Both the position numbers and the translations under genes were made by a program. From Burkholderiales bacterium (GTDB lineage Bacteria; Pseudomonadota; Gammaproteobacteria; Burkholderiales; SG8-41), in NCBI GenBank assembly GCA_030683105.1, contig JAUXMZ010000075.1, positions 17,545 through 81,544 on the forward strand: a DNA stretch of 64,000 bases. Reading direction: 5' to 3'. The stretch's first letter is position 1, and every line of letters starts with the position of its first letter. Shown in pieces: positions 37,820 through 64,000 of this stretch. The notes under the pieces are model-generated. The model was not told the origin of the DNA and made no database searches. It saw only the letters and a program-made list of their open reading frames with translations.

Positions 37820-37823
37820 TCCC

Positions 37824-44298: not shown

Positions 44299-45399
44299 TT
44301 ATAATCGTATTGAAAACACGGAAATCGTCTCCATTAAGCCGCGCAATTCCATATTGCCGCGCGGTACGACGCGGCTTGCGGGCACCAGCTTGCGGATCGA
44401 CTCGAAGAGTTCGCCCGAAACCAGGGCCTCGCCCGCCACTGCTGCCTGCATGAGGCGCGAAGCGATATTCACCGTGTTGCCGATCACGGTGTAGCTCATG
44501 AAATTCGGCGAGCCTACGTTGCCGATGACGGCCTCGCCGCGGCACATCCCGATGCCCAGGCCGCCGGTGATGTCGTAGTGTTCGCGCCAGCGTGCCGCCA
44601 CCGACCCGAAGCGCGACTGCATCTCCTTGGCGGTGGCCCAGGCGCGCGCCGCGGCATTGGGCTGCGGAAAGGGCACGTTGAAGCCCACGAGCAGGCAGTC
44701 CCCTGACATATTGAAAATCGTGCCGTCGTAATGGTGAGCCGCTGCGGTGAGCGCCGCGAAATACTCGTTCAGCATTTCCACGAGCGGTTCCACGTCGATT
44801 ACCTCGGTCATGTGGGTAAAGCCGCGCAAGTCAGCGAACATGACCACCACCTCGGCGCGCTGCGCCTTGGCGCCGAATGGCACGGTTTCGCTGATGATGC
44901 GTTCGACCAGGCGCGGCGAGACATAGCGCGAGAACGCCTTCTGGATCGACTCGCGGTGCGCTGCCGCCGCGAGCGTGTTTCTCATCCGCAGCGCCAGTTC
45001 GCTGGGGTCGACAGGCTTGCGCAGAAAATCGGTCGCCCCGAGATCAAGTGCTCTCAGCTTTGTTTCTGGATCCTCGGCGGTAGTAAGGACGATGGTCGGA
45101 ATGTGTTTCAGCACAGGGTCTTTCTGCATCTCTGCAAGTACGTCAAAGCCGGTTACCTTCGGCATATTGATGTCGAGCAGCAGGACTTTGGGACGCTCGC
45201 GCCGCAGCATGGCGATGGCGGAGGTGGAGTCCGAGGTCGACGTGAACCGACTGAATCCCGCCTGCTCGAGAAATGCCTGGGTGAGCTCGATCACCAGCGC
45301 CTCGTCATCGACCATCGCCACGAGAGCCTCGCCCAGATCGCCCAGGTTCATGCTCCCGGATTGGAGCAATACTTCGTCCGCTTTTATTGGTTCGCTCAT
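44299..45399 (-). CDS. Response regulator receiver - class III nucleotidyl cyclase
   Basis: REC (VDDE, LLLDINMP, KP) plus cyclase (FADLRGFT, GDC, GNTVNIASRL). Confidence 0.93.
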   Translation of the reverse strand: MSEPIKADEVLLQSGSMNLGDLGEALVAMVDDEALVIELTQAFLEQAGFSRFTSTSDSTSAIAMLRRERPKVLLLDINMPKVTGFDVLAEMQKDPVLKHIPTIVLTTAEDPETKLRALDLGATDFLRKPVDPSELALRMRNTLAAAAHRESIQKAFSRYVSPRLVERIISETVPFGAKAQRAEVVVMFADLRGFTHMTEVIDVEPLVEMLNEYFAALTAAAHHYDGTIFNMSGDCLLVGFNVPFPQPNAAARAWATAKEMQSRFGSVAARWREHYDITGGLGIGMCRGEAVIGNVGSPNFMSYTVIGNTVNIASRLMQAAVAGEALVSGELFESIRKLVPASRVVPRGNMELRGLMETISVFSIRL

Positions 45400-45421
45400 T
45401 CATGCCTCCCTGCCGGCGACC

Positions 45422-47917
45422 TCAGGCGACCGCCGATGTCTCCTGCGGCGCGATGACGCGCCGTGCCATTTGCCGCAATTCACCCAGGATCTGTGCCACC
45501 CGCTCGCCTTCGGCGGCCTTGGCGGCGGTCTCGAGCTGCACGGCCGGCGCCATGAACACATCGTAACCCATGGAACCCGCGGACCCCTTGAGCCAGTGGG
45601 CAAAGTTCGCGATCTCCACGTAGTCGTTCTGCGATTCCATCTGCTGCGTCTCGACGAGCCGCTCGTGCAGCCTCACCACGAACTTGCGCAGGATAGGCTG
45701 CAACCGCTTCTGTCCGGCTAGGCGAGACGTGATGGACGTTACCGCTGTGTTGTCGGCGTTCGCCTGCGGCGCGTCGACTGTCGAGTTGATGGCGCCCTCA
45801 GCCGCCGCCGGATCAATGCGTTTACCGCCCAGCAGCAAGGCTATGCTGCGGATCAGCCCATCGATGTCGATAGGCTTGGTCAGGTATACGTTGCAGCCCG
45901 CCTCCATCATCTGGGCTTCAAATCCACTCATGGCATTCGCGGTCAACGCGACGATCGGAATCTTTATGCCACGCTCGCGAAGCGTGCGGGTCGCGGTAAA
46001 ACCGTCCATGACCGGCATCTGCATGTCCATGATGATGAGATCGAATCCGCCCTTCATGGCCATCTCGACGGCGACCTGGCCGTTCTCGGCCTCTTCCACC
46101 CAGAGGCCCTGTTGCGAGAGCACCAGCGACACCAGCTCGCGGTTCTCGGCGCCGTCGTCGGCGATAAGAACCCGCGCCGGGGGAATGCTCCAGCACTCCT
46201 TCACCTCGGCCATGTCTTCGTCAAGATGGGCATCGATCTGCTCGGGTGTGAGCATCGGCACGCCTTCCAGCGGCCCCGTCTCGAAGGTCACCGTAAACAC
46301 GCTGCCCTTGCCCACCTTGCTCGCCACGGTGACATCGCCGCCCAGCGCCCGGGCAAACTTTTTGCTGATCACCAGCCCCAAGCCCGTGCCGCCGTATTTG
46401 CGCGAGATCGAGCTGTCGGCCTGCACGAAGGCCTCGAACAGCGCGCCGATACTCTCCTGCGGAATGCCAATGCCGGTGTCGATGACGTCCAGCGCATAGT
46501 GCGGTGAATTGCCCGGCAGGAACCGGGCACTCACCCGTATGCCGCCGTGATCGGTGAATTTGATCGCATTGCCGAGCAGGTTGAGCACGATCTGGCGCAA
46601 CCGCAGCGGATCGGACCGGACCGTTTGCGGCACCGGGCCTTCAGCGGCAAACCCGATGCTGATCATCTTCTCGCGCGCCCTGACCTCGAATTCGCGCACC
46701 GCCTGGTTCACGATCGTATGCGGCGCACAGGAAATAAGCTCGACTTCGAGCCGCCCCGCCTCCACTTTGGACAAGTCCAGAATATCGTTGATCAGCGCAA
46801 GCAGGTGCGTACCGCTGTTGTATATGGTGTTGAGGTGCTTGGTCGTCTCGCGCTCGTTCTTGCCGAAGCCCCGCCGCAACAACTCGGTGAAGCCGAGTAT
46901 CGCGTTCATCGGGGTGCGGATTTCGTGGCTCATGTTCGCAAGAAATTCGCTCTTGGCACGATTTGCCGACTCGGCTTCGTCGCGAGCGAACTTGAGCTCG
47001 ACCTCTTTTTTCTCGAGTTCGGTAATATCCTCCAAACTGATCAGCACGCCGCCGGGTTTGCTGCCGGCGCCCAGCACCGGCGAGCAGTTCAACAGAAACG
47101 TGCGCAGGGTGCCGGCAGCATCCTTAAGACGTATGGTCTCGTTGCGCTGTATCGCCGCGTCGTTCAGCGCCTTTGTCCATGGATAAACCACTGCCTCGCC
47201 CGCGGGCGTTGCCGTGGCCCAGGGAATGGCGGCCACGCCGGTGCCGAGCATCGCTTCCGAGGATTTCCCGAGGAGATGGGCAAAGGACTCATTCGCCAGC
47301 ACGATGTTCTGGTTCCGGTCGATGATCAGCAGGCCCTCGGTCAGGGTATCGAGCGCCGCGCGCACGCGGCCCGGGATCGCGCGCGACGGGTCCAGTTGGC
47401 GCAGCACGCGACCGAGATAAAAATAAAACGCAGTGAGGCACAGCACGAAGATGAAGGCCAACAGCAGGACGCCGGGCCATTCCAGGATGCCGCGAATCCC
47501 GGGGCTGATCAGGGGCTCGTAGCGCATCTCCAGCTGGCCCCAGCGGTGCTGCTCGGCCCAGATCGGCACCACGAGCTGCGTATCGGTAGAGAGGCCGCCT
47601 TCCATCGGTTCCCAGCGCGTTGCGTGCTCGCCTGTCACGACGACGATGCGCCCGTCGCGGTCGCGCACCGCGATCGAGAGGATCTCCGGATTGCGAGCCA
47701 TGACGAAGCGCAGCACGGATGCAAGTCGTCTTTCCTCTTTAGTGGTCATCAATGCTGTCGCACTGGCAGCCAGGGATTCTGCCAGGCTCACCCGCGCGTG
47801 GCGTTGCGCGCTCAGGCGGTCCGGAACGAATCCCAGCAGCATGGCGAACACCACCGCAGTGGTCACGATCGCGGTGAGGCCAATCGCAACGTGCATTTTA
47901 GTGCTGAATATTTTCAT
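45422..47917 (-). CDS. Hybrid sensor histidine kinase (TM-PAS-HisKA-HATPase-REC-Hpt)
   Basis: [44 protein letters not shown] and Hpt AHWLKGSAG motifs. Confidence 0.95.
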
Positions 47918-50900
47918 GTGCGCTTCGCGTCTACGGGGACCTCGGAAAAAGATGCGATGGCCTGTTCGTCTTCCTCACTGGTTTCGTCATCCTCGTCATC
48001 CACGCGCGCGAGTATCGGCAGCGGGTCGAGCAGCCGCCATGCCGGAAGGGCCGAGAGCATGCTTGCGGCAAGCGCGCCACCGCGGATGAGCCAGATCACA
48101 TAGGCGGCCGTCATGCTGAGGCTGCCGGCGGTGAGCGTGGCGATGGTACGCGTCTGGATTTCGTCCTGCTCGCGCAGACTGTCCTGCAGGCGCGCCAGGT
48201 CGACGCCGAGTCCCACCGCGCCAGCCAAACGTCCCTGTTGTTCGCCCAGTTGGAAAAGATCCAATGGCCGCACCTCGATCTGTTTGAGGACGTCGGCAAT
48301 CAGTTCGCGTACTACCTCTGCGCCTGGCGCAGCAATCCCGTAGGTCTGGAGCCGGTACTCTGGAAGTCCGGCACTGGCGGCGAGCATCTGCAGGCTGCCG
48401 CCGATCGATGCAAAAACCGAGCTGTTCACGGCCAGGGGCAGGAATTCCGCGTCTATCGGCAAAGATGTCCCGCCAGCGGGCACAACCGGGCGGCCTGTAG
48501 TCGAGGCCGGCTGAGACTGCTGCGGCGCGTTGCCCCCGGCTTGCGGGGTAACGACCACTGTCGCGCCGGGCGCGGCCGGAGAGGCGGATTGCTGCGGGCT
48601 GGTGCTCGGCGGGAGCAGGTCGACAAGCGTAATAACGCTCACGGCGAGGGCATGCGTGACGACCGGAGACGACGCGGCGCCGTCGCTCAGCTCAAAGCTC
48701 ACCGTGCGGGTTCCGTTGAACGGCACCGCGCTCGCATTGGAATAGGTCACCGCGCGCAGCGCAGCCTGCCATTGCGCCAGTGTCGCCGTCGCGCCCGCCG
48801 AGTTCAGGCTCAGCGCCCCGCTCGCGGCGTTGTAACCGCCGGCAATGTTGCCCATCGTCGCCGGGTTGTTGGTGAAGCCGAGCGCGTCTTCCGCGGCCCG
48901 GAATCCGGCGCCGATCGAAACCGTCGCGCTCGCAAGCGTGACGTTGTCAAGATCGGCGACCGCCACATTGTCATCCACGAGTATCGGCACGCCCGCCGTG
49001 ATATAGGTCGCCGTACCAGGGCTTGCCGTCACGACCGGCGCGTCGTTCACCGAGGTGACAGCCACCGACTGCGTCGAGGCCGCCGAACTGCCTCCCTCGC
49101 CGGTCACCACGACGCTCACCGTGCGAACCGCGGTGCTGGGCATATCGCTCGTATTGGTATAGGTCACCGAACGCAGCGCCGCCTGCCACTGCGCGAGCGT
49201 CGCCGTCGCACTGGCCGAGCTCAGGCTCAGCACCCCGGTCGCGGCGTTGTAGCTGCCCGAGATGTTGCCCATCGTCGCCGGGTTATTGGCGAAGCCGAGC
49301 ACATCTTCCGCGGCTTGCCAGCCGGCGCCGATCGAAACCGTCGCGCTCGCGAGTGTCGTGCTGTCCGGATCGCTCACCGTCACCGCGTCATCGAGAACGA
49401 CCGGCGCAGACGCGACGTTGTTGCCTTCAGTGAAGGCCGTCGTCCCGCCGCTCGCGGTCACCGTCGGCGCGACGTTCGGCAAGACCGTGATGGCCACCGC
49501 GTCCGAATCCGAGAGAGACCCGCCGGCCCCCGTATTGCCTAGGTCGCTGCTGGTAATCGACAACGACGCCGCGCCGCTGTAGTTGGCACCCGGCATGAAG
49601 CTCAGCCCGTTCAACGCTGCGTTGATCGCCGTGACCGTGCCGCTGAAAGTCATCGCGCCATCCGCGGTGCCATCACCCGCACTGAAAGTCAGTCCGGCGG
49701 TGCCTGCCAGGGTGATGTCGCCGTTGGTACCGTTCAAGGTGACCTGCACGGAGCCCGCGCCGGCATCGGCGTCCCCGACGGAGATCGCGTTGCCGTTGCC
49801 CACCGAGAAAACCAGCGCAGAGTCCTCGTTGGCCGACTGCGCACCGGGCACCGCGTTGACCGGCGCGTCGTTCACCGGGGTGACCGTCACCGTCGAGGTC
49901 TGCGTCGCAGCCGTCAGTACTCCGTCATGGGCCAGCACCGTCACCGCGCGGCTGACCGTGCTCGGCGCCTCACTGATGTTGGTGTACTGAATCCCCTGCA
50001 GAATCGTCTGATAAGTCGCCACCGTGGCCGGCCCCGTGATCGACAGCACCCCGCTCGCCGCCGCGTAGCTCACCGTCAGCCCCGCGCCGCCCGTCGCCGC
50101 CGCCGCATCGAGCGCGAGCGACTCCACCGCGTCGCCATCGGGGCGCGCCGTCAGTGTCACGATCAGCGAGGCGAGGTTCGCCGAATCCACGTCCGCCAGC
50201 GTGCCCGCCGGCGCAATCAGCACCGGCGTCTGCTCGGTGAACGCCACCGTCACGTCCTGGCCCGCACTTCCAGCGTTCAGATCCACCACCGGCGCATCAT
50301 TCACCGCCGTCACCGTGATGCTCGAAGTCTGCGTCGCGCTCGGCGTGGTCCCGTCGCTGGCCACTACCGTCACCAAGCGGTCAGTCGTGGTCGGCGTCTC
50401 GCTCGTGTTGTCGTATCGAATGCTCTGCAGGATCGACTGATAGGTCGCCACCGTGGCCGACCCCGTGATCGAGAGCACGCCGGTGCCGGCCGTGTAGCTC
50501 ACCGTCAAACCGCCCGTCACCGTCGCCGAGAGCGACTCCACCGCGTCGCCGTCGGGCCGCGCCGTCAAGGTCACCGTCAGCGAGGCGAGGTTCGCCGAAT
50601 CCACGTCCGCGAGCGTCGCCACCGGCGCTATCAGCACCGGCGTCTGCTCCGTGAACGCCACCGTCACGTCCTGGCCCGCACCGCCCGCGTTCAGATCCAC
50701 CACCGGCTCGTCGTTCACCGCCGTCACGTCCACCGTGATCGCGTTCGGCGCCGCAGCAAACGCGTTCGCCTGGTCACGCACACTGAACGTGAAGCTCGCG
50801 TAACCCACACCGTTGCCGTTCAACCCCGGCTCGAACGTCAGGTTCGGAATGCTCGCTGCCGTGATCACCTCTGTCGCCGTCACCGCCACGCCCGAGAGCT

Positions 50901-53034
50901 TCAGCGTGCCCGCGCCAGGCAGCGCGTCAATGCGCACCGCACTCAGGCTGTCTCCCGCATCCACATCGCTAAAGCCGAAGTCCGCCGCACTGAACACGTA
51001 GGCCGTGTCCTCGTTCGTCGTCACCGCCTTGTCCGCACCCGTGGGCGCGTCGTTCACCGCCGTCACGGTAATGGTCATCGCATCCGTATCCGATTGGGCG
51101 CCACCGGTGCCCGTGTTGCCCTGGTCGTTCGTCGTGATCGACAACGACGCCCCGCCGTTGAAGTTTGCGGCCGGTATGAAGCTCAGCCCGTTCAGCGCGG
51201 TGTTGATCGCCGCCACCGTGCCGGTGAAGGTCATCGTGCCATCCGCCATGCCGTCGCCGACACTGAAAGTCAGCCCGGCGATGCCCGCCAGGGTGATGAC
51301 ACCGTTTGTGCCGGTCAGCGCGACCTGCACCGGATTCGTGCCCGCATCGACGTCCGCGATGGAAATCGCGTTGCCGCCGGCCACGGAGAATACCAGCGCC
51401 GTGTCTTCGGCGGTCGACTGCGCGCCCGGTACTGTGTTCACCGGCGCGTCGTTCACCGCCGACACCGTGATAAACGAGAACCGCTCCACGCTCGGCGTGG
51501 TCCCGTCGCTGGCCACCACCGACACGATGCGGTCGGTCGTGGTCGGCGCATCGCTCGTGTTGTTGTACTGGATCCCCTGCAGGATCGTCTGGTAGGTCGC
51601 CACCGTGGCCGGCCCCGTGATCGAGAGCACCCCGGTCGCCGCCGTGTAGTCCACCGTCAGCCCCGCGCCGCCCGCCGCGGCCGTCGCCGCCGCATTCAGC
51701 GCGAGCGACTCCACCGCGTTGCCATCGGGCCACGCCGTGATCGTCGCCGTCAGCGACGCCAGGTTCGCCGAATCAAAGTCGACGATCGTGCCCGACGGCG
51801 CAATCAACACCGGCGTCTGCTCGGTGAATGCCGCCACCTCGTCCTGCCCCACACCCGCCGCGCCGTTGAGATCCACCACTGGCGCAGGGTTCGAGACCAC
51901 ACGGAAGGCTAGGTCCTTCGCGGGCTGCGCGGTGGCGTTAGCGAAGAAGGTACCGCCGGGGTATCCGGGAGAGGCGACTCCCACATAAACGTTTCCCCCG
52001 CCGACGCCCTTGACGCTGACGTAATAGGTCGTGCCGTCGGCGAGCGTCGCCGGCGCGGAAAGCGATACGGACATCCAGGCCTCCGATGTGCCGAGGCTCC
52101 TGCGCGCGACGGTTCCGGTCTCAATAATGCCACTACCGCCGCCAAGACTACTGCGCAGCTCGATGGTAATGTTGCCTCCCGCAGGGCTGACGTTCTTGTA
52201 CAGAACGAGGTCGATCTGGTCGACAGAGTAAAAGCCCGCTCCGCTGGTGTACTTGAACGACTGACTCCATGTGCTGCCGCTTCCGGAAATCTCGTAGACG
52301 TTGTCGGCCATGCTGGCGAAGGACGGCTCGTAGGACGTCAATACGATGCTCGGCAGCAGGTGGGACCAGGCGTCCTGCTCGCTTACGCTCAGCGCGACCG
52401 GCACGTCGATCGCACCGGTTGCATATTCCAGTTTCCAGTCGCCGCCCAGGCTCGTATGGCCGGTCGCGTCGTCCGAGGCGGCGACATCAGCCCCGGTCAG
52501 GCGCGCGAGCGTATCGGCCAGCAGCCGTCCCTGCGCCGTTGCCGCGACATCGCAGCCGTAAAGGAGGATATCGGCGTCCGCGGTCAGCGCCTTCGCCCAG
52601 CTTTCGACCCGGTCCGGATTGCCTTGAAGCGAATCGGCCGTGACCAGTTCGTTGCCCAGCTGGATGACGCCGTCGCCGCCGTGGCCGATGATATGCAGCG
52701 CAGCCACGTTCTCGCGGCCCGCGAGCGCCTCGGAGATCTGCGCCAGTCCATCCCGGCCGGCATCGAGCATGACGACATCGACCTGGCGTCCGCTTTGCGC
52801 GGTGATGTCCTGGACGAGAAGCGCGTAGTCAGGCGTGCGGGCATCGATGAATACAATTTCATGCGGGGCGTTTTGCACCGCCTGCTCGTTCTGGGCCGCG
52901 AACTCGAGATGGGGATCGACGACGCGTTGCTCCGCGGCGCCCGGCCCGACCACCGCCGAGGCCAGCAGCGGACCGAGATCCGCCGAGTACAGGATCCGTG
53001 GCTCGAGTGATTCTATGGTCGGGCGCTGGCGCAT
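47914..53034 (-). CDS. 1706-aa surface/adhesin-like protein: LEPR-XLL motif, DUF4347, Ig/cadherin-like repeats, C-terminal membrane anchor
   Basis: N-terminal [10 protein letters not shown]; DUF4347 (VFID...LHIIGHG...LLYGC...GGDWKLE); repeated VNDAP units; C-terminal YVIWLIRGG...[14 protein letters not shown] plus acidic tail. Confidence 0.9.
48625..51882 (-). repeat. Intragenic tandem domain repeats (order A-B-C-A-A-B-D-D)
   Basis: A ([20 protein letters not shown]) at about 51451-51882, 50299-50706 and 49870-50292; B (DAPVN.VPGAQS) x2; D (ATVSIGAG...NNPATMGNI) x2. Copies share long DNA identities. Confidence 0.88.
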
Positions 53035-53882
53035 TATCGTTTAGGATCGCGTTCTGCGACGGGGGGGTTGGCGTCGACACCGAGGTCGACCTTGCAACGC
53101 GGCCCGGCTGGCAGCGAGTAGTTCGGATTCGGCAACTCGAGCCTGATCCGGAAGGTATTGCTCGGGCCATCGATGATCGAATCGACCAGCACCACTTTCG
53201 CCTGCCTGGGCTTGGCGTTGGGCAGCTCGGGTGTGACCGTGAGCGACGAACCGACCTTTATGGTGCCGTAGAGCGACGCGGGAATGACGACTTCCACCCG
53301 CAGGGGATTGGTGGTGGCGACGCGCACGATCGGCTTTTCCTCGACCCGCTCGCCCCCCGACATGTAACGCTCGACGATGACGCCATCGGCCGGGCTGCGT
53401 ATGGTCCGCAGCTCGAGCTGCGCTTCGGCGAGTTGCAGCTCGCGTCCCCAGATGCGGCGCTGATCCTTCGCCTGCACCAGCCGCTGTTCGGCCACCTCGG
53501 CTTCCGCGCGCGCCTGCTCCAGCGCCTGATCGGAGATGAATTTTTTGCTCACCAGATCCTGGGCGCGCGCAAGCTTCTGGCGCGCGAGCTCGTAGTTCGA
53601 TTGCGCGGCCTGGATTTCCGCCGACACCTTTGCCCGGCTGGAAGCGACGCCCACTGCAGCCCGCTCGACATCGGCGCGCAGCATGGCAACGACCTGGCCT
53701 TTGGCAACGCGGTCGCCACGCTCGACCTTGACCGCTTCCACTACGCCGATGACCGGGCTGCCGACATCGACCATGCGAGACGGTTCGATCAGGCAGCCCA
53801 GCGGCTGGGCGCCGCTCACCCAGGGACTCGCTGCGCTGAGGAGTGCTGCAAAACCTATTCTTGCTGCGCTGCGCATAGTCAT
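53034..53882 (-). CDS. Membrane fusion protein (HlyD/RND adaptor family)
   Basis: Signal peptide; VGSPVIGVVEAVKVERGDRVAKGQVVAML, IRSPADGVI and SNTFRIRL motifs. Confidence 0.9.
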   Translation of the reverse strand: MTMRSAARIGFAALLSAASPWVSGAQPLGCLIEPSRMVDVGSPVIGVVEAVKVERGDRVAKGQVVAMLRADVERAAVGVASSRAKVSAEIQAAQSNYELARQKLARAQDLVSKKFISDQALEQARAEAEVAEQRLVQAKDQRRIWGRELQLAEAQLELRTIRSPADGVIVERYMSGGERVEEKPIVRVATTNPLRVEVVIPASLYGTIKVGSSLTVTPELPNAKPRQAKVVLVDSIIDGPSNTFRIRLELPNPNYSLPAGPRCKVDLGVDANPPVAERDPKR

Positions 53883-55840
53883 CTGCTTGATGTCCCCATC
53901 ATCGGTTCACGATCGAACGCCTCGTCCTGCAGGCGCAGCTGAAGGCGCAGCCGGTAACGCCGTCGCCCCTCCCACCATAGTGCCACACGCGCGAGCAATA
54001 TCCCCACCCAGCGCAGGCGCAATTCCCCTGCCCGTCCTGCCCAACCCGTGATGAACGCCGGCAGGCACGCGACGACCGGCGCCGACTCGAGCGACAGCAG
54101 CGTTTCGCAGCTTCCCGCCTCGCCCCGCCTTGCGCAACGCCCCGTAAACTGGCGGTCGATGCGTCGCGAGGCATTCGCCTGGCACAGCATCACGTGCAGC
54201 CCGCCGGCTCGGGCAAGACGTTCCGCGATCGCAATGTCGGTGCCCCGGCCCGCCATGTTGGTAGCCACGGTGATGCGCCCCGCCTGTCCAGCCGTGGCGA
54301 TCACGTGCGCCTCGTGCCGGTCCTGGCGCGCATTGAGCACGACGTGCGCGAGACCGGCAGCACCCAGGTGCTGCGACAGCACCTGCGAATCGGCCACCGA
54401 GTCGGTGCCGATGAGTGCGGCACCGCCGCGCGCCTGAATGTCCCGCGCGCGCGCCACGACGAAGCGCCACCGCGCTTTATGCGTGCCGAACACCCGGGTC
54501 GGAAGCACCACCCGACGCGAAGGTTGCCGCAGCGGCACCCGCAGCACCGGCACGCCATAAACCGCGCGCAGTTCCGCTCGCGACTCGATGAGCGTTCCGC
54601 TCATGCCGCACAGGTGCAGGTAGCGTGAAAAGAAACGTTGGTAGGTAATCTGCGCGGCTGTCACGAGCTCCGCGCTTGGCCGGCACCCTTCCTTGAGTTC
54701 GATGAACTGGTGCAGGCCGCGCGACCACGCGCGGCCAGGGGCAACGCGCCCGCTCGTGTCGTCGATGATGTGCACAGCACCATCGCGCACCAGGTAGTGA
54801 TGATCGCGATGAAACAGATGAATCGCGGCCAAGGCCATGCTTAAGGCTTCCTCACGGTAGCGGCGGACGCGCCACAGGGTATCGCCATCGGTCGACTGGG
54901 TTTCGGCCTTTGCGCGGCCATGTGCGGTAAGTTCAACCGCCCGCGATTCGGGATCGGTAACAAAGTCTTCGCGCGTGATCAGGCTGCGCGCGAATGCCAG
55001 AGCTCGCGTGTAATGCTCACGTTTGCCGCGATGGTCCTCGGCGCGCGAAAGAACGAACGGCACGCTGGCCTCGTCGAGCAGCACGCTGTCGGCTTCGTCC
55101 ACGATCGCCATGCACAAACCGCGCAGCAGCGTGGCAGGCGCGTCCGGGGTCGCCATGCGATAAGCCCGGCTGCGCAGCTCGCCTTCGACATCACGGCGCA
55201 AGAGACTGTCGCGCAAATAGTCGAAGACCAGTTCCTTCGCCGTGCAATATGTCACCGCGCAGCGGTACGCGCGCCGGCGCGCATCCATATCGAGCTCCTG
55301 CGTCACGACCCCGACATCCAGCCCGAGCGCGCCGAAGATGGGCCGCAGAGCGTCAGCGTCCCGCCGGGCGAGGTATTCGTTTGCGGTGATGACATGGACC
55401 GGTACTCGGGCGAGCGCAGCGGTAGCCGCCGCCAGCGCCGCCGCCAGCGTCTTACCTTCGCCGGTCGGCATTTCAACCAGGCGACGGTTGAGCATGGCGC
55501 GAGCGGCGATCATCTGCCCGGGGTACGGCCGCTGTCCCGTCTGGCGATTCGAGATCTCGGAAAAGAGGGCAAATGCCGCCACCTGCAGGTCGTCCGCCAA
55601 CCCGCGGCGCGCGAACTGCTGGCGCACCCTGTGCACTTCGCTTGCACACTGTTCCGTAGACAAACGAATCATTGCCGGTTGCAGCGCCTCGACGGCGCGC
55701 AGGAAAGCGGCATGGGGCGGCACGCGGTTGGCAACTCGCGCTGCCCGGCGCGCGAGCCAACCGGCGCCATTGCCGCGCCGCTCGGGATAATGGCCCCACA
55801 GCACCCCCGGAATAGGCAGTTCGGCTGATCGCATGTTCAT
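53879..55840 (-). CDS. Secondary SecA-like (SecA_DEAD) ATPase lacking the C-terminal scaffold/wing domains (653 aa)
   Basis: EMPTGEGKT, VITANEYLARRD, DYLRD, VDEADSVLLDEA, GMSGT, ATNMAGRGTDI and RRIDRQ..GRCARRGEAG; the protein ends about 60 aa later. ATG 55840 overlaps the upstream TGA. Confidence 0.9.
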   Translation of the reverse strand: MNMRSAELPIPGVLWGHYPERRGNGAGWLARRAARVANRVPPHAAFLRAVEALQPAMIRLSTEQCASEVHRVRQQFARRGLADDLQVAAFALFSEISNRQTGQRPYPGQMIAARAMLNRRLVEMPTGEGKTLAAALAAATAALARVPVHVITANEYLARRDADALRPIFGALGLDVGVVTQELDMDARRRAYRCAVTYCTAKELVFDYLRDSLLRRDVEGELRSRAYRMATPDAPATLLRGLCMAIVDEADSVLLDEASVPFVLSRAEDHRGKREHYTRALAFARSLITREDFVTDPESRAVELTAHGRAKAETQSTDGDTLWRVRRYREEALSMALAAIHLFHRDHHYLVRDGAVHIIDDTSGRVAPGRAWSRGLHQFIELKEGCRPSAELVTAAQITYQRFFSRYLHLCGMSGTLIESRAELRAVYGVPVLRVPLRQPSRRVVLPTRVFGTHKARWRFVVARARDIQARGGAALIGTDSVADSQVLSQHLGAAGLAHVVLNARQDRHEAHVIATAGQAGRITVATNMAGRGTDIAIAERLARAGGLHVMLCQANASRRIDRQFTGRCARRGEAGSCETLLSLESAPVVACLPAFITGWAGRAGELRLRWVGILLARVALWWEGRRRYRLRLQLRLQDEAFDREPMMGTSSR

Positions 55841-57978
55841 GCCACCGGGTTGAAATGCTTGAGGAAGAGCTGGCGCAGGCGGCGATACCACTGCCCGGCC
55901 AGCGGTTCGGAACCCAGATCGAAGCGCACCCACACGCGCTGTCCGAGGCTGCGCAATGCTTCGCCTTGCAGTTCGAGATCAAAAAGGAACACCGGCTCCA
56001 GCGTCCGCATCCCTTCCTTGTCGGCGGGATCCGTGGCGTGGCGGCCCCCGCCGCGTTCGCCAAGCGCGGGGCTGGGAAGCGCATGAGCGGCGGCAGGCGC
56101 CGCACGCTCGAGCCGGGCCGGCATCGGCGATCCCCGTCCTGGCAACAGAACTTCAGCGCCGCGGCTGCTGGCACGCAAAAGGGGCGCACTCTCGTTGGGG
56201 ACGACCGCGCGAACGGCCGTGGGTGCCGAGCTCAGGATATAACCCAGCATCGCGCCTTTTTTCAAGAAGGCGCCTGGCAGATCCTCGCTGTGCGGCAGGA
56301 CCAGCTGACCCGTCACTTTGCTGCGCACGGTCAAATAACCGATGCGCTCCTCGATGCGTTCCAGTTCGGACTGCGCGCGGACCAGCTCCTCGGTCACGTT
56401 TTTCGCTTGCGCCGGGTCGCTCAGCAGCGACTGGTAGCGCTGCGCCTCCAGGGCCTGCACGCGCGAGCGCAAGGCGATGTGCTCGGTCTGAAGCATGGGC
56501 TCGGCAAGCTCCACCAGCGGCGTCCCGGGGTGGACGACTTCGCCTTCGCGTGCCAGAACCCGCAGGACAAAACCCTCTGTTTCCGCTCTGACCTGTGCGC
56601 GCTCGGAGGGCCATACCACCCCTTGCACGAGCAACATGCTCGGAAACGGCACGGCAAAAACCAGCACCAGCGCGCCCACGCCACCCAGTGCAGAGAAGAG
56701 CGCCGCGCGCCGTCGCGCGCGCCCCAAGGGCAGCGCGCTGAGCAACGATTGAATGGTGATGAACGCCGGGCGGATCACCATGGATACCAGCACCAGCGCC
56801 GCCGCCAGCCAGCCCAGCCATTCCGATTTGCCGCCGAGCCAGAGGATCAACGCCAGTGCCAGCGCAAGGCGATAAGCAAGCGAGGCCGGCGCGTAGAAGA
56901 GCAGCCATTTACGCTCGTGGCGCGTCATCACGGGCGCCGATGCCCGGTCCGTGCCGCCGAGCAACCGCAGCGCGAGATATGTCCAGTACGACTGACTGCG
57001 CACGGCAAGGTTGGGCATGTCCAGAAGATCACAGAACAGGTGATAGCCGTCGAAGCGCAGCAACGGGTTGCCGTTGAAAAGGAGCGACGACGCGCCGCAC
57101 AAGAACAGCGTCACGAACGCAACGTCGCTCAGCAGACCCGGTTCAACCTCGAGCCATAACCAGAGCGCGACCACCCCAAGGCCGAGTTCCACCATGATCC
57201 CTGCCGCGCTGACAGCCGCCCGATGCCAGCGGTCGCGAAAGGCGTTTGCCGCCGAGGCGTCGACATAAGGTGCCGGCATGAAAAAAAGGAAGGTCACGCC
57301 CATCTCGCGCACTTCGCCACCCCCTCGCCGCACGGCGATGGCATGCGCCAACTCGTGCAACCCCTTGATGACGGGGTAGCAAAACCAGGCGAGGATGAGA
57401 TAGTACGTCGTCGACATGTATTTCGCAGCGTGTGCTGCAAGCGCACTCCAGTTCATGGCGACAGCAACCACAGCCATTACCACTGCGGCCGCCCAAAGTG
57501 CCAGCGTTGTCGGGCGCAGCAGCGGACGCAAAGCCGGCTCCAGACGATCGAGCAGGCTCGACGGATCGAAAAGCGACACGGGAAAAGCCAGCGGGTTCAC
57601 CCATGGCCGACGGTTGCGCGCGCGCTTGGCACGCTCACGGAAAAGACCGGCGATATCCGGCGTGGTCTCGAACTGCACGAGCTCAGCCTCGCTCAGCCGC
57701 GAGAGGATGCGCACCACCTCGTCCTGCGTCGGCGCATCGTCGCCGAATTTTTCCAGGAGCAGCGTCCACACCTGGTTGACCGACGTGCGGCCATCGAGGC
57801 GCCCTATGAGTTCGTAGGCCGGTCGGTTGATCCGGTTCTGCCGCCCATCGGTTCCGTTGATCAACAGATACCAGGCCTCGCCTTGATAGATCTGTCGCTG
57901 CACACGCACAGCAGCCCGCAGCCGCGGATGCAAGTCGCTTACACGGTACCAAAGCGGGCTGAAGAGCGATTCGGCCAT
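55837..57978 (-). CDS. PqqD/RRE-like domain - M50 (site-2) metallopeptidase - MFP-like fusion
   Basis: N-terminal RLDGRTSV..V...L...DEVVRILSRL (PqqD-like); HELAH and NPLLRFDG (M50 Zn ligands); multiple TMs; biotinyl-lipoyl/coiled-coil MFP region. Confidence 0.85.
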   Translation of the reverse strand: MAESLFSPLWYRVSDLHPRLRAAVRVQRQIYQGEAWYLLINGTDGRQNRINRPAYELIGRLDGRTSVNQVWTLLLEKFGDDAPTQDEVVRILSRLSEAELVQFETTPDIAGLFRERAKRARNRRPWVNPLAFPVSLFDPSSLLDRLEPALRPLLRPTTLALWAAAVVMAVVAVAMNWSALAAHAAKYMSTTYYLILAWFCYPVIKGLHELAHAIAVRRGGGEVREMGVTFLFFMPAPYVDASAANAFRDRWHRAAVSAAGIMVELGLGVVALWLWLEVEPGLLSDVAFVTLFLCGASSLLFNGNPLLRFDGYHLFCDLLDMPNLAVRSQSYWTYLALRLLGGTDRASAPVMTRHERKWLLFYAPASLAYRLALALALILWLGGKSEWLGWLAAALVLVSMVIRPAFITIQSLLSALPLGRARRRAALFSALGGVGALVLVFAVPFPSMLLVQGVVWPSERAQVRAETEGFVLRVLAREGEVVHPGTPLVELAEPMLQTEHIALRSRVQALEAQRYQSLLSDPAQAKNVTEELVRAQSELERIEERIGYLTVRSKVTGQLVLPHSEDLPGAFLKKGAMLGYILSSAPTAVRAVVPNESAPLLRASSRGAEVLLPGRGSPMPARLERAAPAAAHALPSPALGERGGGRHATDPADKEGMRTLEPVFLFDLELQGEALRSLGQRVWVRFDLGSEPLAGQWYRRLRQLFLKHFNPVA

Positions 57979-59433
57979 CTAGACTCCCAGGGACCAGGTC
58001 ACGAGGCGCAGCCACTCGATCGCGCGATGCGTTGCGATCCAAAGCACGGAGCGCTCGCCGGTGGCGACTTTGGCAACGCCGCGCATCCCGGGTCGCAACA
58101 TGTTGCCCGGCGTATCAAACACCCCCTCCACCTCGAAGTAATTTCGTCCCTCACCCGCCACCGCCATGGGCAGAATGCGGCTCACGCGAAACCCGTGCGT
58201 CTCGCCAGGCGTCGCGGCTATCGCGAGGCGACCGGGGAGTCCGGTCCGCAGTTGACCAACATCGCGCTCGTCGACTTCGACTATCACGCGGAAGCGCTCA
58301 TCCGGCGCCAGCGTCATGAGGACTTCGCCGCGCTGCACTGGCGCACCGAGCGACTGCGAAAGATCGCCCTTGATCACCACGCCGTCGAACGGTGCCCGGA
58401 TCTGCGCACGCTGGATGTGGTTATTGACCAGCGTCAGCTGCGCCTGCGCCTCTGCCGCCTTCGCATGATGGATCACAAGCTGCGTTCTGTCTGACCGTGC
58501 AAGTGCCGCCCCGTAAAGGTTCTCTTCCTGCGTCAGCTCGCTTTGGCGTTTGGCGCGTTCAGTCTGCAGGTCACGCTGGGATAACTCCGCGATGATCTCG
58601 TCTGCGTGCACCTTGTCGCCGGGACGCACATTGACCTGTTCGAGGAAACCGTCGATCGGCGCCGCCACGATGCGCTGAATGAAGCCTTCAAGGCGTGCCG
58701 GCGCGCTGACGTGATAGGACACGGGGACAAACATTGCGGCCGCAACAGCAACGACGGCCAAGCTCGCCAGTCGCGTACCTGCACGGGCCGATCCGGCGAT
58801 ACGGGTGGCCGACGCACGCCAGTCATCAAGCGCGACCCTCAAAAAGGCGCGCTGGCTCTTTCTTTTCAATTCGAGCAGCGGCGCGAGCAGGCAGGCAACG
58901 TCCTCGCTAAACGCGACATCTGTTCGACTGAACACCTCGCCTGCGCGCTCCAGCGTAATGGCACCGACGGCGCGTCCGGCATCGACCAGGGGAACGGTAC
59001 ACACGCCGCCGCCGAGCAAGGCATGCACCTCGCTATGGGCAAGGGTCACCGACAAACTGGAAGCGTCCTCGGGCGGCAATACAATAGTGGTCGCCTGCTC
59101 TATCGACTCGTCCATGGCGGCGCCGATTTTCTCGAACAGAGCATGGCGGCGGTCGAATTCAGCACCATGCGAGGTCGCAATGACACGAATGGCACCGCGC
59201 TCGAGCCAGCCTACCGTGACCCGGTCGCAACGCTGCGCTTTCGCCAGTTCATTGGCGAGCGAAGCGGCGGATTGCGCCAACCCCTCCTGGGACAGCACAG
59301 CCGCCTGCACCTCGAGAATGACTCCCGCCGCCGTTATCGAACCGGCAGCCCGTTTTTTATTCGGCTCCATGGGAAGTTCGTTACGCATATTCCATGCCAG
59401 TTTTGGGGGCGATGGTTTTTCAAAGCTCGACAA
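57979..59433 (-). CDS. GAF domain - membrane fusion protein (HlyD family)
   Basis: GAF (CDRVTVG...VCTVPLVDAGRAVGAITLER), TM helix, VAAPIDGFLEQVNVRPGD, IRAPFDGVV. Start may be 59388 or 59370. Confidence 0.87.
   Translation of the reverse strand: MSSFEKPSPPKLAWNMRNELPMEPNKKRAAGSITAAGVILEVQAAVLSQEGLAQSAASLANELAKAQRCDRVTVGWLERGAIRVIATSHGAEFDRRHALFEKIGAAMDESIEQATTIVLPPEDASSLSVTLAHSEVHALLGGGVCTVPLVDAGRAVGAITLERAGEVFSRTDVAFSEDVACLLAPLLELKRKSQRAFLRVALDDWRASATRIAGSARAGTRLASLAVVAVAAAMFVPVSYHVSAPARLEGFIQRIVAAPIDGFLEQVNVRPGDKVHADEIIAELSQRDLQTERAKRQSELTQEENLYGAALARSDRTQLVIHHAKAAEAQAQLTLVNNHIQRAQIRAPFDGVVIKGDLSQSLGAPVQRGEVLMTLAPDERFRVIVEVDERDVGQLRTGLPGRLAIAATPGETHGFRVSRILPMAVAGEGRNYFEVEGVFDTPGNMLRPGMRGVAKVATGERSVLWIATHRAIEWLRLVTWSLGV
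59385..59399 (-). promoter_or_regulatory. Possible sigma54 -24/-12 element
   Basis: Minus strand TGGCATG-GAAT-ATGC with correct GG-N10-GC spacing; overlaps the uncertain N-terminus of the first operon gene. Confidence 0.25.
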
Positions 59434-60419
59434 CAGGCCCTTGTTTTTGATTGCCTATCCAAGTTGCCATGCGTATCCGTCATTGTGCATTCGGCCTGGA
59501 CTCCGCATTTACCCACTTGGCGTCATCGCGCACTATGAGAACTCGTTTCGCGCCGGCATCCCAAACTTATTCTTTCCTCTGTACCGGCCCGAATATCATG
59601 CACAGTTTTGAGAATTTTATCCATACTTTCAACCATTTAGTCCTTGTATATCAGGGTTTGCCCGGGGCTATGAAAAATTCTTTAATTAAAACAATTGGTT
59701 ATCTGTCAGCAGTCCAAGGTCCCCAAGGTCGAGCTCAGCCCCGCTTGCTGAGCCGGCGAGCCAAATCGGTAGTAGCAACTCGCTGACGGCTCGCCTATGC
59801 CCGGCGTTTCGGCGACCAAGCGGCCCAGGGCCGCGGCCGGATTTCCAGCGCCGCAGACGAAGCTATGTACGACGGGCGACAGTGATGTGAGGCAGCGCGT
59901 TGTTGGCGTTTGGTCCAGAGGCGTCGTGCAGGGATGGGTTGTCCCTGATGGATCTTGCCGCGTAAATGAGGCGAAATGGCCGGGGACGACAACACGCCGC
60001 GCATTACATTCGGGCTCAGAGACAGTTCCAAGGGCCAGTGAAGACCGAACTCCATTTCACGGTTTGTTGCTGCGCGCGATGTTATGTCGGAGCTAAATTG
60101 AACCGTCGGCCATTATCCATGTGTGTCGACGAATATAGTAATTTACCCACGGGTGCGCTTTGATGGTTGCTCAGGGACGTAATTACCTGATCTTCATCGT
60201 TGCGCCCGGCCTGCGCTCGCCCAATGAAACAAAGCACCACGAAATCTGGCCATGGAAAAAAGTGCACACAAGAAAGTGATCAGCAAGGCCTTCAGTGTTT
60301 GACCGGTACCCGACGTAGTGATAACTTCATGATTAATAAAAGAGCGATTGAATTTCCCATTCACCAGACAATCTCGCGCCCGCGCGGCAGCGGCGCGTTG
60401 CACCGGAGACATAAACCCC

Positions 60420-61134: not shown

Positions 61135-64000
61135 GTGAGCGACGACACCCCCAAAACCAGCCGACTGCGCGCCATTGCCACATCCAAACTGGCGATTGCC
61201 GGCGCGACCCTGCTGCTCGTTTATACGATTAGCGGATTCCTGCTTGCGCCGTGGCTGATCCGGCAGCAGTTGCCGTCACTGATCGATAAGCATCTGGGCG
61301 CGCAAGGATCGGTGTCCGCAGTACGCATCAATCCCTTCCTGCTGACCTTCGAAGCTACCGACCTGACGATTACCGAAAAAGACGGTACCCCGGCCTTGCA
61401 GGTGGGCCGCATCTTCGTCGATTTTGAGGCGAGCAGCCTGCTGCGCCGGGCATGGACCTTCCGCCAGATCCAGATCGAGCGCCCGGTCATCCATGCCGAA
61501 CTCGATGCCAAAGAAAGTTTAAATCTGGCGCGATTGATGAAGTCTGCATCAACGGACACGATGCCTTCTGCCCGGCAGGCGGCGGAATCCACGCAACCGC
61601 CGCGAGTGCTGTTGCAGCATTTCGCGATCTCCGGCGGCACGTTCAGTTTTACTGACCGCACCCTTGAACCTGCAGCCAAGGCGCAGTGGGCCCCGGTAAA
61701 TGTCGAAATGCACGATGTGTCGACCTTGCCCGACCATCGCGGCGAGCATGCACTCACGGCCCGACTGGCTGGCGGCGGCAGCCTACAATGGCAGGGCAAG
61801 TTCACGCTGGCGCCGATGGACTCCAGCGGGTCGATCACGCTGAAAGACGCCAAATTGGCGACACCCTGGCAGTTCGTGCGCGATCATCTGACGATCGCCG
61901 AGCCCGCCGGTTCGTATGAACTCGGGTTGCGCTACCGGCTGCGCTACGGCAACGGCGCGCTGGATCTGCAGGCAGACGACCTCGAATTCCGGGCAAAGGA
62001 TGTTGCGATCGCACAGCAGCAGGGCGGCGCAACGTTGCTCAAGCTCGCGACGATAGCTTTCGAGGGCGGCAGCTTCGATTTACGGCAGCGCAGCCTCGCC
62101 TTCAAGGAGGTGCGCATTGCCGACGGCGCGCTCGGTGTCGTCCTCGATCAGGTAGGCAAGCCGGACTGGTCCAAACTGGTCCTCGCGCCTGCCGACGCCC
62201 AGCCTGCTGCGGCAGAGGCTCCGCCCGCTGCGAATAATGTGGCAGCTAAAGCGTCCTGGCAGATAGCACTGCCCAAAGTCAGCATAGGCCCATTGGCGCT
62301 CGCGGTGACGGACCACAGCCGGGTTAAACCGCTGCATGTGACGATCGCCAGCGCACAAGCCGGTTTCGGCGTCGCCGCCGCGGTAGGCAAGGAAATCCAG
62401 GTCACCATCGACAACGGCGCGCTGAAAATTGACGATGTCCACATCCGCTCCGGCGATGCCAAAGAGCCGCTGATCACGCTGGCCGCTGCCGAACTTGCGG
62501 GCGGCGCATTCGACCTCCAGCAGAAAACCGCACGCGCGCGGCTGCTGCGGCTGTCGGGCGGCAACACGCCGGTCGTGCGCGAAGCCGATGGCAGCCTCAA
62601 CCTGGCCGGCGCGTTTGCCGCTCGCCGCGACGAACCGCCGCAGGATTCCGGCTTCGACATTACGCTGGATCGCGCGGAAATCATCGGTTACGCGGTGACG
62701 TTAACGGATCGAACCTTTCAGCCGGCCGTGACCTACGATCTGGAGAATGCGCGCGTCGCGGCATCGAACATCGCGGTGCCGTTCAAAAAGGCCAGCCCGG
62801 TCGAACTCTCGTTGCGGATCAAGCAGGGCGGTGCGCTGCAGGCCAAAGGCGCCGTCGATCTGCTGCGTCAGACCGCCGATGTGCGCTTCGAGGCAACCGA
62901 TGTTGCACTGACGCCGGTCGAGAGCGTGCTCAAACGCCACACCACGCTGACGCTGGCATCGGGCAAGGCTGGCGCCAGCGGCCGCGTCATCTGGACCGGC
63001 AAAAGCAAGCCGGCGGCGATCCGCTATGCCGGCTCGGCGGCAATCACCGATGTTGATCTGAAAACCGAAGGCTCCGGTGAACGGCTGTTCAGCTGGCAGC
63101 GCCTCGTCGCATCGAACATCGATTTCGACAGCGCAGACAACCGGCTGGCCATTGCGCAGCTGAGCCTCGCCCAGCCTTACGCCAGACTGATTGTCACTAA
63201 AGACCGCTCCACCAACCTGGCAGGCATCATGCGCCCCAGCGCAAAGCCCGCCACACCTGCACCTGATGCTGGCGCACCGATGGCGATCACCCTGGACCGC
63301 GTCAGCGTCCAGCGCGGCACCATGGATTTCTCCGACCTCAGCCTGGTGCTGCCCTTCACAACCCACATCAAGGCGCTGGGCGGCTCGGCCAGCGGCCTGT
63401 CCTCGGCCCCCGACTCGCGCGCCAGCCTGAAATTCGAAGGTCGTGTCGAAGATTACGGGCTGGCGCGCGCCGAAGGCACGATCCAGCCCTTTGCGCCCAA
63501 AAAATTCACCGACATCACGGCCACCTTCCGCAATATTGCAGTGACGCCGCTTAGCCCCTATACCGCGACCTTCGCCGGCCGCAAGATCGCCTCGGGCAAG
63601 CTGTCGCTGGACCTGCAGTACAAACTCAACAACAGCCAGTTGGCCGGCGAAAACAAGGTGGTGCTGGAGCAGTTCACGCTGGGCGAGCGCGTGGACAGCC
63701 CCTCCGCGGTCGATCTGCCACTGGATCTTGCGATTGCGCTGCTGACCGACAGCGACGGCAAGATCGAGTTGGCCGTGCCGGTCTCCGGCAACGTCGACCA
63801 CCCGGAGTTCGGTTACGAACACCTGATCGGGCAGGCGATCAGCACGATGATCACGCGCATTGTCACCGCGCCGTTCCGCGCGCTTGGAGCGCTGTTCGGC
63901 GGCAGCGCCGAAACGCTGGGTGACATCGTGTTCGATCCGGGCAGTGCGCGCATCCTGCCGACCGAGTACGAGAAACTGCGGCGCGTCGCGGAAGGGCTGC
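61135..64000 (+). CDS. DUF748-domain (AsmA-like) protein, 3' partial
   Basis: Absent from the track because it has no stop in the window. GTG 61135; N-terminal TM YTISGFLLAPWL, VRINPFLL, PYTATFAGRKIASGKLSLDLQY and DLPLDLAIALLTDSDGKIEL motifs; the last line is in the same frame. Confidence 0.85.
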   Translation, partial: MSDDTPKTSRLRAIATSKLAIAGATLLLVYTISGFLLAPWLIRQQLPSLIDKHLGAQGSVSAVRINPFLLTFEATDLTITEKDGTPALQVGRIFVDFEASSLLRRAWTFRQIQIERPVIHAELDAKESLNLARLMKSASTDTMPSARQAAESTQPPRVLLQHFAISGGTFSFTDRTLEPAAKAQWAPVNVEMHDVSTLPDHRGEHALTARLAGGGSLQWQGKFTLAPMDSSGSITLKDAKLATPWQFVRDHLTIAEPAGSYELGLRYRLRYGNGALDLQADDLEFRAKDVAIAQQQGGATLLKLATIAFEGGSFDLRQRSLAFKEVRIADGALGVVLDQVGKPDWSKLVLAPADAQPAAAEAPPAANNVAAKASWQIALPKVSIGPLALAVTDHSRVKPLHVTIASAQAGFGVAAAVGKEIQVTIDNGALKIDDVHIRSGDAKEPLITLAAAELAGGAFDLQQKTARARLLRLSGGNTPVVREADGSLNLAGAFAARRDEPPQDSGFDITLDRAEIIGYAVTLTDRTFQPAVTYDLENARVAASNIAVPFKKASPVELSLRIKQGGALQAKGAVDLLRQTADVRFEATDVALTPVESVLKRHTTLTLASGKAGASGRVIWTGKSKPAAIRYAGSAAITDVDLKTEGSGERLFSWQRLVASNIDFDSADNRLAIAQLSLAQPYARLIVTKDRSTNLAGIMRPSAKPATPAPDAGAPMAITLDRVSVQRGTMDFSDLSLVLPFTTHIKALGGSASGLSSAPDSRASLKFEGRVEDYGLARAEGTIQPFAPKKFTDITATFRNIAVTPLSPYTATFAGRKIASGKLSLDLQYKLNNSQLAGENKVVLEQFTLGERVDSPSAVDLPLDLAIALLTDSDGKIELAVPVSGNVDHPEFGYEHLIGQAISTMITRIVTAPFRALGALFGGSAETLGDIVFDPGSARILPTEYEKLRRVAEGL

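Follow-up and report, generated by a model that had tools for sequence, protein, structure and literature searches.

The stretch of DNA analysed here, the window, comprises 64,000 nucleotides of contig JAUXMZ010000075.1 (forward-strand positions 17,545 to 81,544) from a groundwater metagenome-assembled Burkholderiales genome (GCA_030683105.1; 4.12 Mb in 78 contigs). At window positions 44299-59433 it carries an operon of seven minus-strand genes, here named g1 to g7, in which adaptor proteins, a membrane protease and a SecA-like ATPase stand beside a giant protein, which they may export, and a kinase-regulator pair. On the coordinates of the seven genes and the near-complete coupling of their junctions, the listing of open reading frames (ORFs) and a reading of the sequence agree with an earlier reading of the same DNA (hereafter the original prediction), and the domains that it had assigned to all seven genes were matched by Pfam and NCBIfam. 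The genes, and the parts of g5 to which the argument refers, are as follows.

57979-59433, minus strand: g1, 484 aa; GAF and HlyD (Pfam/NCBIfam)
55837-57978, minus strand: g2, 713 aa; PqqD, Peptidase_M50 and HlyD (Pfam)
53879-55840, minus strand: g3, 653 aa; SecA_DEAD, PPXD and P-loop
53034-53882, minus strand: g4, 282 aa; HlyD
47914-53034, minus strand: g5, 1706 aa; LEPR-XLL, DUF4347 and cadherin-like/tandem-95 repeats
52957-53034, minus strand: LEPR-XLL leader of g5, residues 1-26
52354-52857, minus strand: DUF4347 of g5, residues 60-227; Pfam 2.7e-53
47917-48138, minus strand: C-terminal hydrophobic anchor and acidic tail of g5, conserved in the giants of relatives
45422-47917, minus strand: g6, 831 aa; PAS-HisKA-HATPase-REC-Hpt
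44299-45399, minus strand: g7, 366 aa; REC and Guanylate_cyc

As read from the sequence, the stop codon of g1 (TAG) directly abuts the start codon of g2 (ATG), with stop and start at 57979/57978, ATGA overlaps join g2 to g3 (55837-55840), g3 to g4 (53879-53882) and g5 to g6 (47914-47917), the junction between g4 and g5 is TAATG at 53032-53036, and a 22-nt gap containing GGGAGG precedes g7. Whether g1 begins at the TTG at 59433 is in doubt: 14 codons downstream there is an in-frame ATG, and close homologues of g1 have 456-470 aa. Three of the products contain adaptors of the membrane fusion protein (MFP) type and, as had been predicted, a Pfam and NCBIfam scan of the seven genes found no ATP-binding cassette (ABC), resistance-nodulation-division (RND) or TolC gene within the operon; the pair of MFP and AcrB genes at window positions 10740-14908 is unrelated to it, as are the genes on its flanks.

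The first four genes are shown by comparison across genomes to form a conserved cassette. At E<=1e-10, 1621 of the scored candidates belong to the g2 family, nearly all of them 705-720 aa long, and scanning one genome for each species gave at least 596 confirmed g2 loci. Matches to M50-HlyD proteins split into two classes, class 1 being full length and accompanied by SecA and class 2 being without it; 80 loci were kept for the class-1 counts. The core order is common to these 80 loci, which come from Beta- and Gammaproteobacteria, Nitrospira, Myxococcota, Desulfobacterota and Acidobacteriota, with g1 upstream of g2 in 71 of 74 testable loci, g3 downstream of g2 in 60 of 65 and g4 after g3 in 47 of 56, as a gene-neighbourhood check of the original prediction would require. 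The arrangement is far beyond chance, and other species repeat the order g1-g2-g3(-g4); among cultured bacteria, Methylorubrum extorquens AM1 (META1p2399-2402), Piscinibacter sakaiensis 201-F6, Marinobacterium mangrovicola DSM 27697 and Ramlibacter alkalitolerans carry the class-1 cassette. The core corresponds exactly to the 'secondary SecA_DEAD' cluster of Kamneva, Poudel and Ward (2015, PLoS One; PMC4452313), the paper to which the original prediction had pointed. In its passages on the cluster, secondary SecA_DEAD proteins are described as having lost the wing/scaffold domain and their genes as adjoining GAF-HlyD, Peptidase_M50-HlyD and HlyD genes, sometimes with an OEP gene beside them; the ATPase was proposed to be supplied by SecA_DEAD and the membrane pore by the M50 protein, and the biological role was called "completely unknown" (PMC4452313). 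The wing/scaffold domain is likewise missing from g3 (653 aa, aligned to SecA 27-543 only), beside which GAF-HlyD, M50-HlyD and small HlyD genes lie in one direction. A literature search found no follow-up to the 2015 paper. The cluster is thus already in print as a gene cluster without an assigned role, and its link to a cargo, the PqqD-like domain, the SecA-less class and the anchor-kinase-regulator unit described below were not found in the literature, as far as the passages of the 2015 paper on the cluster and the search results extend.

Sequence comparison and modelling show that g2 unites three elements in one chain, namely the fold of a recognition element (RRE) for ribosomally synthesized and post-translationally modified peptides (RiPPs), an intact M50 active site and an adaptor of the TolC-docking type. 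The PqqD-like RRE occupies residues 18-101 (Pfam PqqD 5e-05, M50 1.3e-05) and is followed by an M50/site-2-protease membrane domain with HELAH at 208-212, NPLLRFD at 304-310 and six hydrophobic helices within 157-443, and then by a periplasmic MFP part with an alpha-hairpin at 494-547. Among the homologues, H208, E209, H212, N304, P305 and D310 are invariant (HExxH and NPxxxxD). In the AlphaFold model (pLDDT 80), the N-domain has the beta3-alpha3 form of the RRE type, the membrane part is a bundle of helices and the adaptor has a hairpin of 26+26 residues, and Foldseek matched the C-terminus to MexA, AcrA and MacA (E~1e-12). Residues 18-401 match the NCBIfam model of the daptide intramembrane metalloprotease, NF041824, with E=1.4e-46 and 159.4 bits, below its cut-off of 300, and the score against NF058609 is 26.5 bits, below its cut-off of 225; g2 therefore has the RRE-like N-domain and HExxH protease of the RiPP peptidases and lies outside their equivalog limits. 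Because of this homology and the modelled RRE fold, a role for g2 in reading and clipping a leader fits the data.

The protein encoded by g3 aligns to Bacillus subtilis SecA over residues 27-543 of 778, that is, over the first nucleotide-binding domain (NBD1), the PPXD and NBD2, with a well conserved motor region (Pfam SecA_DEAD 5e-83), and is without the helical wing domain and the two-helix finger. Its best NCBIfam SecA score is 459 against a cut-off of 814 and the SecA2 models give 360-420 bits, again below their cut-offs, so that g3 has neither the full domain set nor the score of a canonical SecA or SecA2. Alignment shows that it has the motor of SecA and lacks the parts that engage SecY; the housekeeping SecA of the genome, 33% identical to g3, is encoded on contig C68. 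The two remaining adaptors differ in build: according to Pfam, NCBIfam and hydropathy, g1 has a cytoplasmic GAF domain at about 56-182, one transmembrane helix at about 222-240 and a periplasmic HlyD-type region at 255-464, and g4 is a small periplasmic HlyD/RND_mfp adaptor (130.5 bits for TIGR01730, above cut-off) that begins with a signal-like segment. In Thiobacillus-like relatives (L091-L093, L096), the kinase-regulator pair is followed by a second adaptor of the g4 type and a second LEPR/DUF4347 giant; one such second adaptor (L092) carries a fused NTF2-like Cds6_C domain, and it is to the second adaptor of these relatives that g4 of the window is most similar (281-311 bits).

That the giant protein g5 is the cargo of the cassette, as had been predicted, has strong support from four independent lines: synteny, the phylogenetic profile, covariation of leader and machine, and one-to-one copy number. 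A LEPR giant follows the core in 31 of the 49 class-1 loci with enough downstream sequence, including giants without DUF4347, and these class-1 giants are large ORFs that begin with basic residues, followed by the LEPR motif. A survey of 301 Pseudomonadota genomes found M50-HlyD and DUF4347 together in 78, M50-HlyD only in 10, DUF4347 only in 11 and neither in 202 (odds ratio 143; Fisher p=3e-48, a value that ignores shared ancestry and is only indicative), a phylogenetic-profile check of the kind that had been suggested. The leaders follow the machine: all 35 class-1 leaders have the form EPRxL[YFHL]S and all 23 class-2 leaders the form LEPRxx[FLY]D[GA]. The genome of the window has exactly one cassette, and g5 is its sole LEPR-XLL/DUF4347 protein.

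The leader of g5 belongs to the LEPR-XLL family (NF012209, residues 6-26, 25.2 bits against a cut-off of 17) and is modelled as disordered. Neither RTX repeats or a HemolysinCabind match (Pfam) nor a Sec-type hydrophobic N-terminus (hydropathy) was found in g5. At its other end, the giants of relatives share the anchor consensus GYVxWLxRGGVLLSSLLSSLPAWRLxDPLPxL followed by an acidic tail. The DUF4347 model has a core pLDDT mostly above 85 and is best matched in Foldseek by a chain of the Pseudomonas aeruginosa Hcp3-Tce1 type VI secretion complex, then by legumain and caspase-7; His114, His118 and Cys161 are invariant in an alignment of 22 homologues. Together the model and alignment suggest a clan-CD-like cysteine peptidase fold at the N-terminus of the cargo, with TM-scores to peptidases of only about 0.3. 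A literature search returned nothing on the function of LEPR-XLL or DUF4347. Contigs from the source sample fragment into short pieces across 50163-51067, within g5, which fits internal repeats, and tile the flanks of this segment with zero differences.

With regard to the outer membrane, the genome of the window has six OEP/TolC genes, all on contigs other than that of the window. Among the 80 class-1 loci, a single query found adjacent TolC in none and a set of seven queries in about 4-6, most matches of the latter set being spurious coiled-coil matches to g1. Docking of the adaptors on a TolC encoded elsewhere, as originally proposed, is plausible from the modelled C-terminal fold of g2, the adjacent TolC of class 2 and that of the few class-1 loci; the six OEP genes also speak for this proposal. 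Of the components of a type I secretion system (T1SS), the membrane fusion protein is present three times, and the C-terminus of g2 matches MexA/AcrA/MacA. A dedicated ABC transporter is missing, an ABC-type ATPase ORF occurring in the flanks of 3 of the 80 related loci and inside the core of none, and so is a C-terminal secretion signal or RTX region, the end of g5 being the hydrophobic anchor with its acidic tail.

The original prediction spoke of a fused kinase-cyclase output and took it for the new part of the system. The kinase g6, in which hydropathy places two transmembrane helices around a periplasmic loop of about 120 aa, and the cyclase g7 are two separate genes, and they differ in conservation. 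In eight relatives, among them Thiobacillus, Rhodocyclaceae and Ramlibacter, the gene directly after the giant gene is a full-length orthologue of g6 (800-960 bits), and after it comes one for a REC-GGDEF-EAL protein of 598-639 aa, not for a cyclase. The anchor motif is present in 23 of the 25 genomes tested, and wherever the module regulator occurs (14 of 14 genomes), its gene is found some 3 kb downstream of the anchor. Gene order thus shows the kinase to be a conserved partner, or neighbour, of the C-terminal anchor of the giant. The cyclase is not conserved: a class III cyclase is nearby in 1 of the 80 class-1 loci, which equals background density and rules it out as a conserved part of class 1. 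The receiver domain (REC) of g7 is 50-60% identical to those of the REC-GGDEF-EAL regulators of relatives and falls within their clade in a maximum-likelihood tree (support 99/99), other REC-cyclases lying outside it; the phylogeny thereby shows its descent from the regulator of the cassette, and a foreign origin of the REC-cyclase gene is ruled out for its REC half. A sister genus encodes a 67%-identical orthologue of g7 outside its module, on a different contig that has no module genes, and the module itself keeps giant, histidine kinase and REC-GGDEF-EAL. No REC-GGDEF-EAL of the module type was found in the genome of the window. Because its REC nests inside the REC-GGDEF-EAL clade, g7 is, on this phylogeny, an exchange of output that is peculiar to one lineage, at a signalling position that is otherwise conserved, and not a feature of the system. 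Sensor-cyclases (CHASE2 or dCache, class III) stand directly beside the M50-MFP gene in 6 of 30 class-2 loci from two lineages (e.g. L116-L121), and second-messenger enzymes are, judged from gene neighbourhoods, recurrent neighbours of the modules, of varying kind. Compared with the cyclase CyaB (3R5G), g7 keeps the two metal-binding Asp residues and the Asn/Arg transition-state pair (FADLRGF, GDC, VNIASR).

On balance, we consider it somewhat more probable than not from these comparisons that the operon serves to export and display a single giant surface protein through a dedicated, leader-guided system, and that its two signalling genes are coupled to that protein. In such a system, the cytoplasmic RRE of g2 would bind the extended LEPR-XLL leader, and the SecA-like ATPase g3 would grip the unfolded chain through its NBD/PPXD clamp and feed it, N-terminus first, into an inner-membrane platform formed by the M50 domains, whose active site would clip the leader; the M50 RiPP protease EpeP is thought both to cleave and to export its peptide (PMC10885120). 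The adaptors g1, g2 and g4 would form a mixed tube docked on a TolC-family channel, one of the six whose genes lie elsewhere in the genome, and the C-terminal hydrophobic segment of g5 would act as a tether by remaining in the inner membrane or within the machine. The hybrid kinase g6 would then read the state of the anchor or the envelope and phosphorylate g7, which in this lineage would make a cyclic mononucleotide, its product being uncertain, in place of cyclic di-GMP (c-di-GMP) turnover, with the GAF domain of g1 as a candidate receiver. The most far-reaching form of this model is improbable as a whole: a distinct, unnumbered Gram-negative secretion route in which the RRE would read the leader, the protease/adaptor fusion, two further adaptors and TolC would form the conduit, a motor-only SecA would feed it, the kinase would monitor the anchor, and a cyclic mononucleotide read by the GAF domain of g1 would close a feedback loop on export.

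Several observations weigh against the export-and-display model. To our knowledge, an M50 domain has not been described as a protein-conducting channel. The operon itself has no TolC gene, and no LEPR giant lies within 10 kb in 18 of the 49 testable class-1 loci, although DUF4347 occurs at another place in 13 of 20 genomes where no giant is adjacent, in several cases 10-25 kb away; the co-occurrence statistic carries the shared-ancestry limit given with it. Canonical ABC exporters of the T1SS type are encoded in the genome (PrtD family, above cut-off, on C48; HlyB-like on C53 and C38), and because of them g5 could be exported by another route. On the signalling side, an Asn of g7 aligns with the substrate Lys of CyaB (IFNMSGD against IDKFVGD), so that g7 has neither the substrate-selecting Lys of adenylyl nor the Glu of guanylyl cyclases and its product is uncertain. 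A homology search for the ligand of the g1 GAF domain found no informative solved relative. GAF-MFP proteins are present in most loci without a cyclase, so that reading of the cyclase product by the GAF domain of g1, which may occur here, is not supported as a general rule. An RNA-labelled soil run yielded contigs of 200-400 bp that belong to a relative and carry mismatches, none of them spanning a junction. The sole expression data cited in the passages of the 2015 paper on the cluster indicate that the genes of Methylorubrum extorquens are little expressed, apart from the GAF gene (PMC4452313).

A further point comes from class 2, whose cassette comprises TolC, a small MFP, a mid-sized MFP and the M50-MFP, with no SecA-like gene and no dedicated ATPase seen. 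It adjoins DUF4347 giants in 19 of 20 further loci, with TolC in 17 of the 20, and its M50-MFP is homologous to that of class 1 over the whole length, N-domain included (hhalign probability 100, E=4e-71, 688 columns). Because class 2 serves the same type of cargo without a dedicated ATPase, g3 cannot, judged from these loci, be the universal energy source for such cargo, and SecA is perhaps accessory; within class 1, g3 may be a motor or, alternatively, a holdase or targeting factor. The original proposal that the SecA-like protein replaces the ABC motor, with the M50 protein as the membrane part, had been made already in 2015, and the putative motor role is not universal. In the sample of 301 genomes, class 2 (loci L081-L090, L112-L131), with leaders of the form LEPRxMFDGA, is commoner than the SecA class.

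In the likeliest of the alternatives, the cassette and TolC export the giant while the SecA-like protein serves as a cytoplasmic holdase or targeting factor for a very long unfolded substrate, energy being drawn from another source, for example the proton-motive force or calcium-driven folding of the cadherin-like repeats outside the cell. Besides the SecA-less service of LEPR/DUF4347 giants by a homologous M50-MFP, the absence from g3 of the two-helix finger and wing domain, which canonical SecA uses on the channel, and the cadherin-like/tandem-95 repeats of the cargo are in its favour. We nevertheless hold it unlikely, since g3 is kept after g2 in 60 of 65 class-1 loci, its NBD1-NBD2 motor region aligns well with solved SecA, and the leaders of the two classes differ systematically, which suggests that the cargo is recognised or fed in differently.

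The cassette might instead be a membrane device for processing, regulated proteolysis or envelope signalling and not a translocon, clipping the giant at its leader or at its C-terminal anchor or reporting the state of the envelope, the giant being exported by, for example, a canonical ABC exporter. M50 enzymes are known as intramembrane proteases, not channels, and the conserved C-terminal segment of the giant contains Gly-Gly and Pro, helix-breaking residues being typical of site-2-protease substrates; the ABC exporters on C48, C53 and C38 would be at hand, the C38 HlyB-like gene adjoining an OEP gene. This explanation appears quite improbable, as g5 is without RTX repeats, a recognisable C-terminal T1SS signal and a Sec signal, a protease and nothing more would hardly account for three adaptors of the TolC-docking type and the adjacent TolC of class 2, and the class-2 giants have no C-terminal anchor, yet their M50-MFP is retained. 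That the cassette matures or exports a small RiPP-like peptide or other small substrate, the giant gene being a co-regulated neighbour, is very improbable despite the resemblance of the RRE-M50 part of g2 to RiPP leader peptidases, the roughly 900 bp left unannotated upstream and the common export of small molecules by MFP/TolC systems, since no genes for RiPP-modifying enzymes were noticed in the loci (no systematic search for them was made), the LEPR leader is on the giant itself and covaries with the machine class, co-occurrence with DUF4347 is strong across genomes, and the genome has a single LEPR protein.

The region upstream of the operon is presumed to hold its promoter and regulatory sequences.

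59434-60332, minus strand: non-coding upstream region, about 900 bp 5' of g1, with G+C lower than the operon

It has no ORF with a Pfam match; Rfam had no hit in the whole window at gathering score, nor between 59300 and 60450 with the limit relaxed to E<=1, and a promoter scan upstream of g1 found no sigma-70-like consensus site. Candidate hits of a terminator scan are weak and all inside coding regions. Divergent from the operon and upstream of it, 61135-64000 on the plus strand encodes a DUF748/AsmA-like protein of more than 955 aa that exceeds the end of the window. Elsewhere in the window lie a 1137-aa HAMP-GAF-GAF-GGDEF-EAL protein (32392-35805, minus strand), 8.5 kb downstream of the operon, which is a c-di-GMP enzyme without a receiver domain; a DUF2868 protein followed by a DUF3482/MMR_HSR1 GTPase (36350-39281, plus strand); and an ORF with a weak N-terminal match to the UGSC family (39778-41193, plus strand; E=1.2e-4).

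Giant surface proteins with a LEPR-XLL start are commonly found in environmental Proteobacteria, Nitrospira, Planctomycetes and further groups. If the export-and-display model is true, they would be served by an ABC-less, leader-guided secretion system assembled from parts of Sec, RiPP maturation and tripartite pumps, and, both classes counted, the cassette is present in roughly one quarter to one third of the sampled Pseudomonadota genomes. The comparative evidence turns the 2015 cluster of 'unknown role' into a testable hypothesis with named residues and domains. To this the window adds a C-terminal anchor of the cargo locked to a hybrid kinase, and an exchange of the regulator output from GGDEF-EAL to a class III cyclase with the receiver kept, a natural rewiring experiment; on the loci compared, this REC-cyclase replacement is what is particular to the window. 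It suggests that the state of a surface adhesin is coupled to second-messenger pools, and it offers a candidate class of ligand for the GAF domain of g1.

Among known systems, the locus described by Kamneva and colleagues, for example META1p2402-2399 of M. extorquens AM1, matches g1-g4 protein for protein and in gene order, and the passages of that paper on the cluster name no cargo, LEPR-XLL/DUF4347, PqqD/RRE, kinase/regulator or SecA-less class (PMC4452313). The accessory SecA2 of Gram-positive bacteria and mycobacteria is, like g3, a second SecA paralogue dedicated to few special substrates; unlike the SecA2 systems, the operon has no SecY2 or Asp genes, and the partners of g3 are adaptors and an M50 protease. 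With c-di-GMP-controlled type I systems for giant adhesins, such as LapA with its LapBCE exporter and LapD/LapG, or HlyBD-TolC, the operon shares a giant repeat protein that would be exported without a Sec signal, adaptors of the MFP type, a putative TolC, probable retention at the surface and a link to second messengers through the REC-GGDEF-EAL proteins of relatives. It differs from them in having no ABC transporter, in an N-terminal LEPR-XLL signal in place of a C-terminal or RTX one, in three adaptors, one of which is fused to M50 and RRE domains, and in signalling through a hybrid kinase; Pfam found no LapD or LapG domain in the seven genes, no search aimed at LapD/LapG having been made. 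As in MacAB-TolC and MexAB-OprM, the C-terminus of g2 and g4 are bona fide adaptors with alpha-hairpin, lipoyl and beta-barrel domains, whereas g1-g4 are without the inner-membrane ABC or RND pump of those assemblies. Finally, g2 has the layout of the RiPP peptidases (NF041824 of daptides; YydH/LiaK and EpeP of epipeptides), an RRE-like N-domain followed by an HExxH protease, and departs from them in its fused periplasmic adaptor and in its presumed substrate, a protein of 1706 aa in place of a short peptide.

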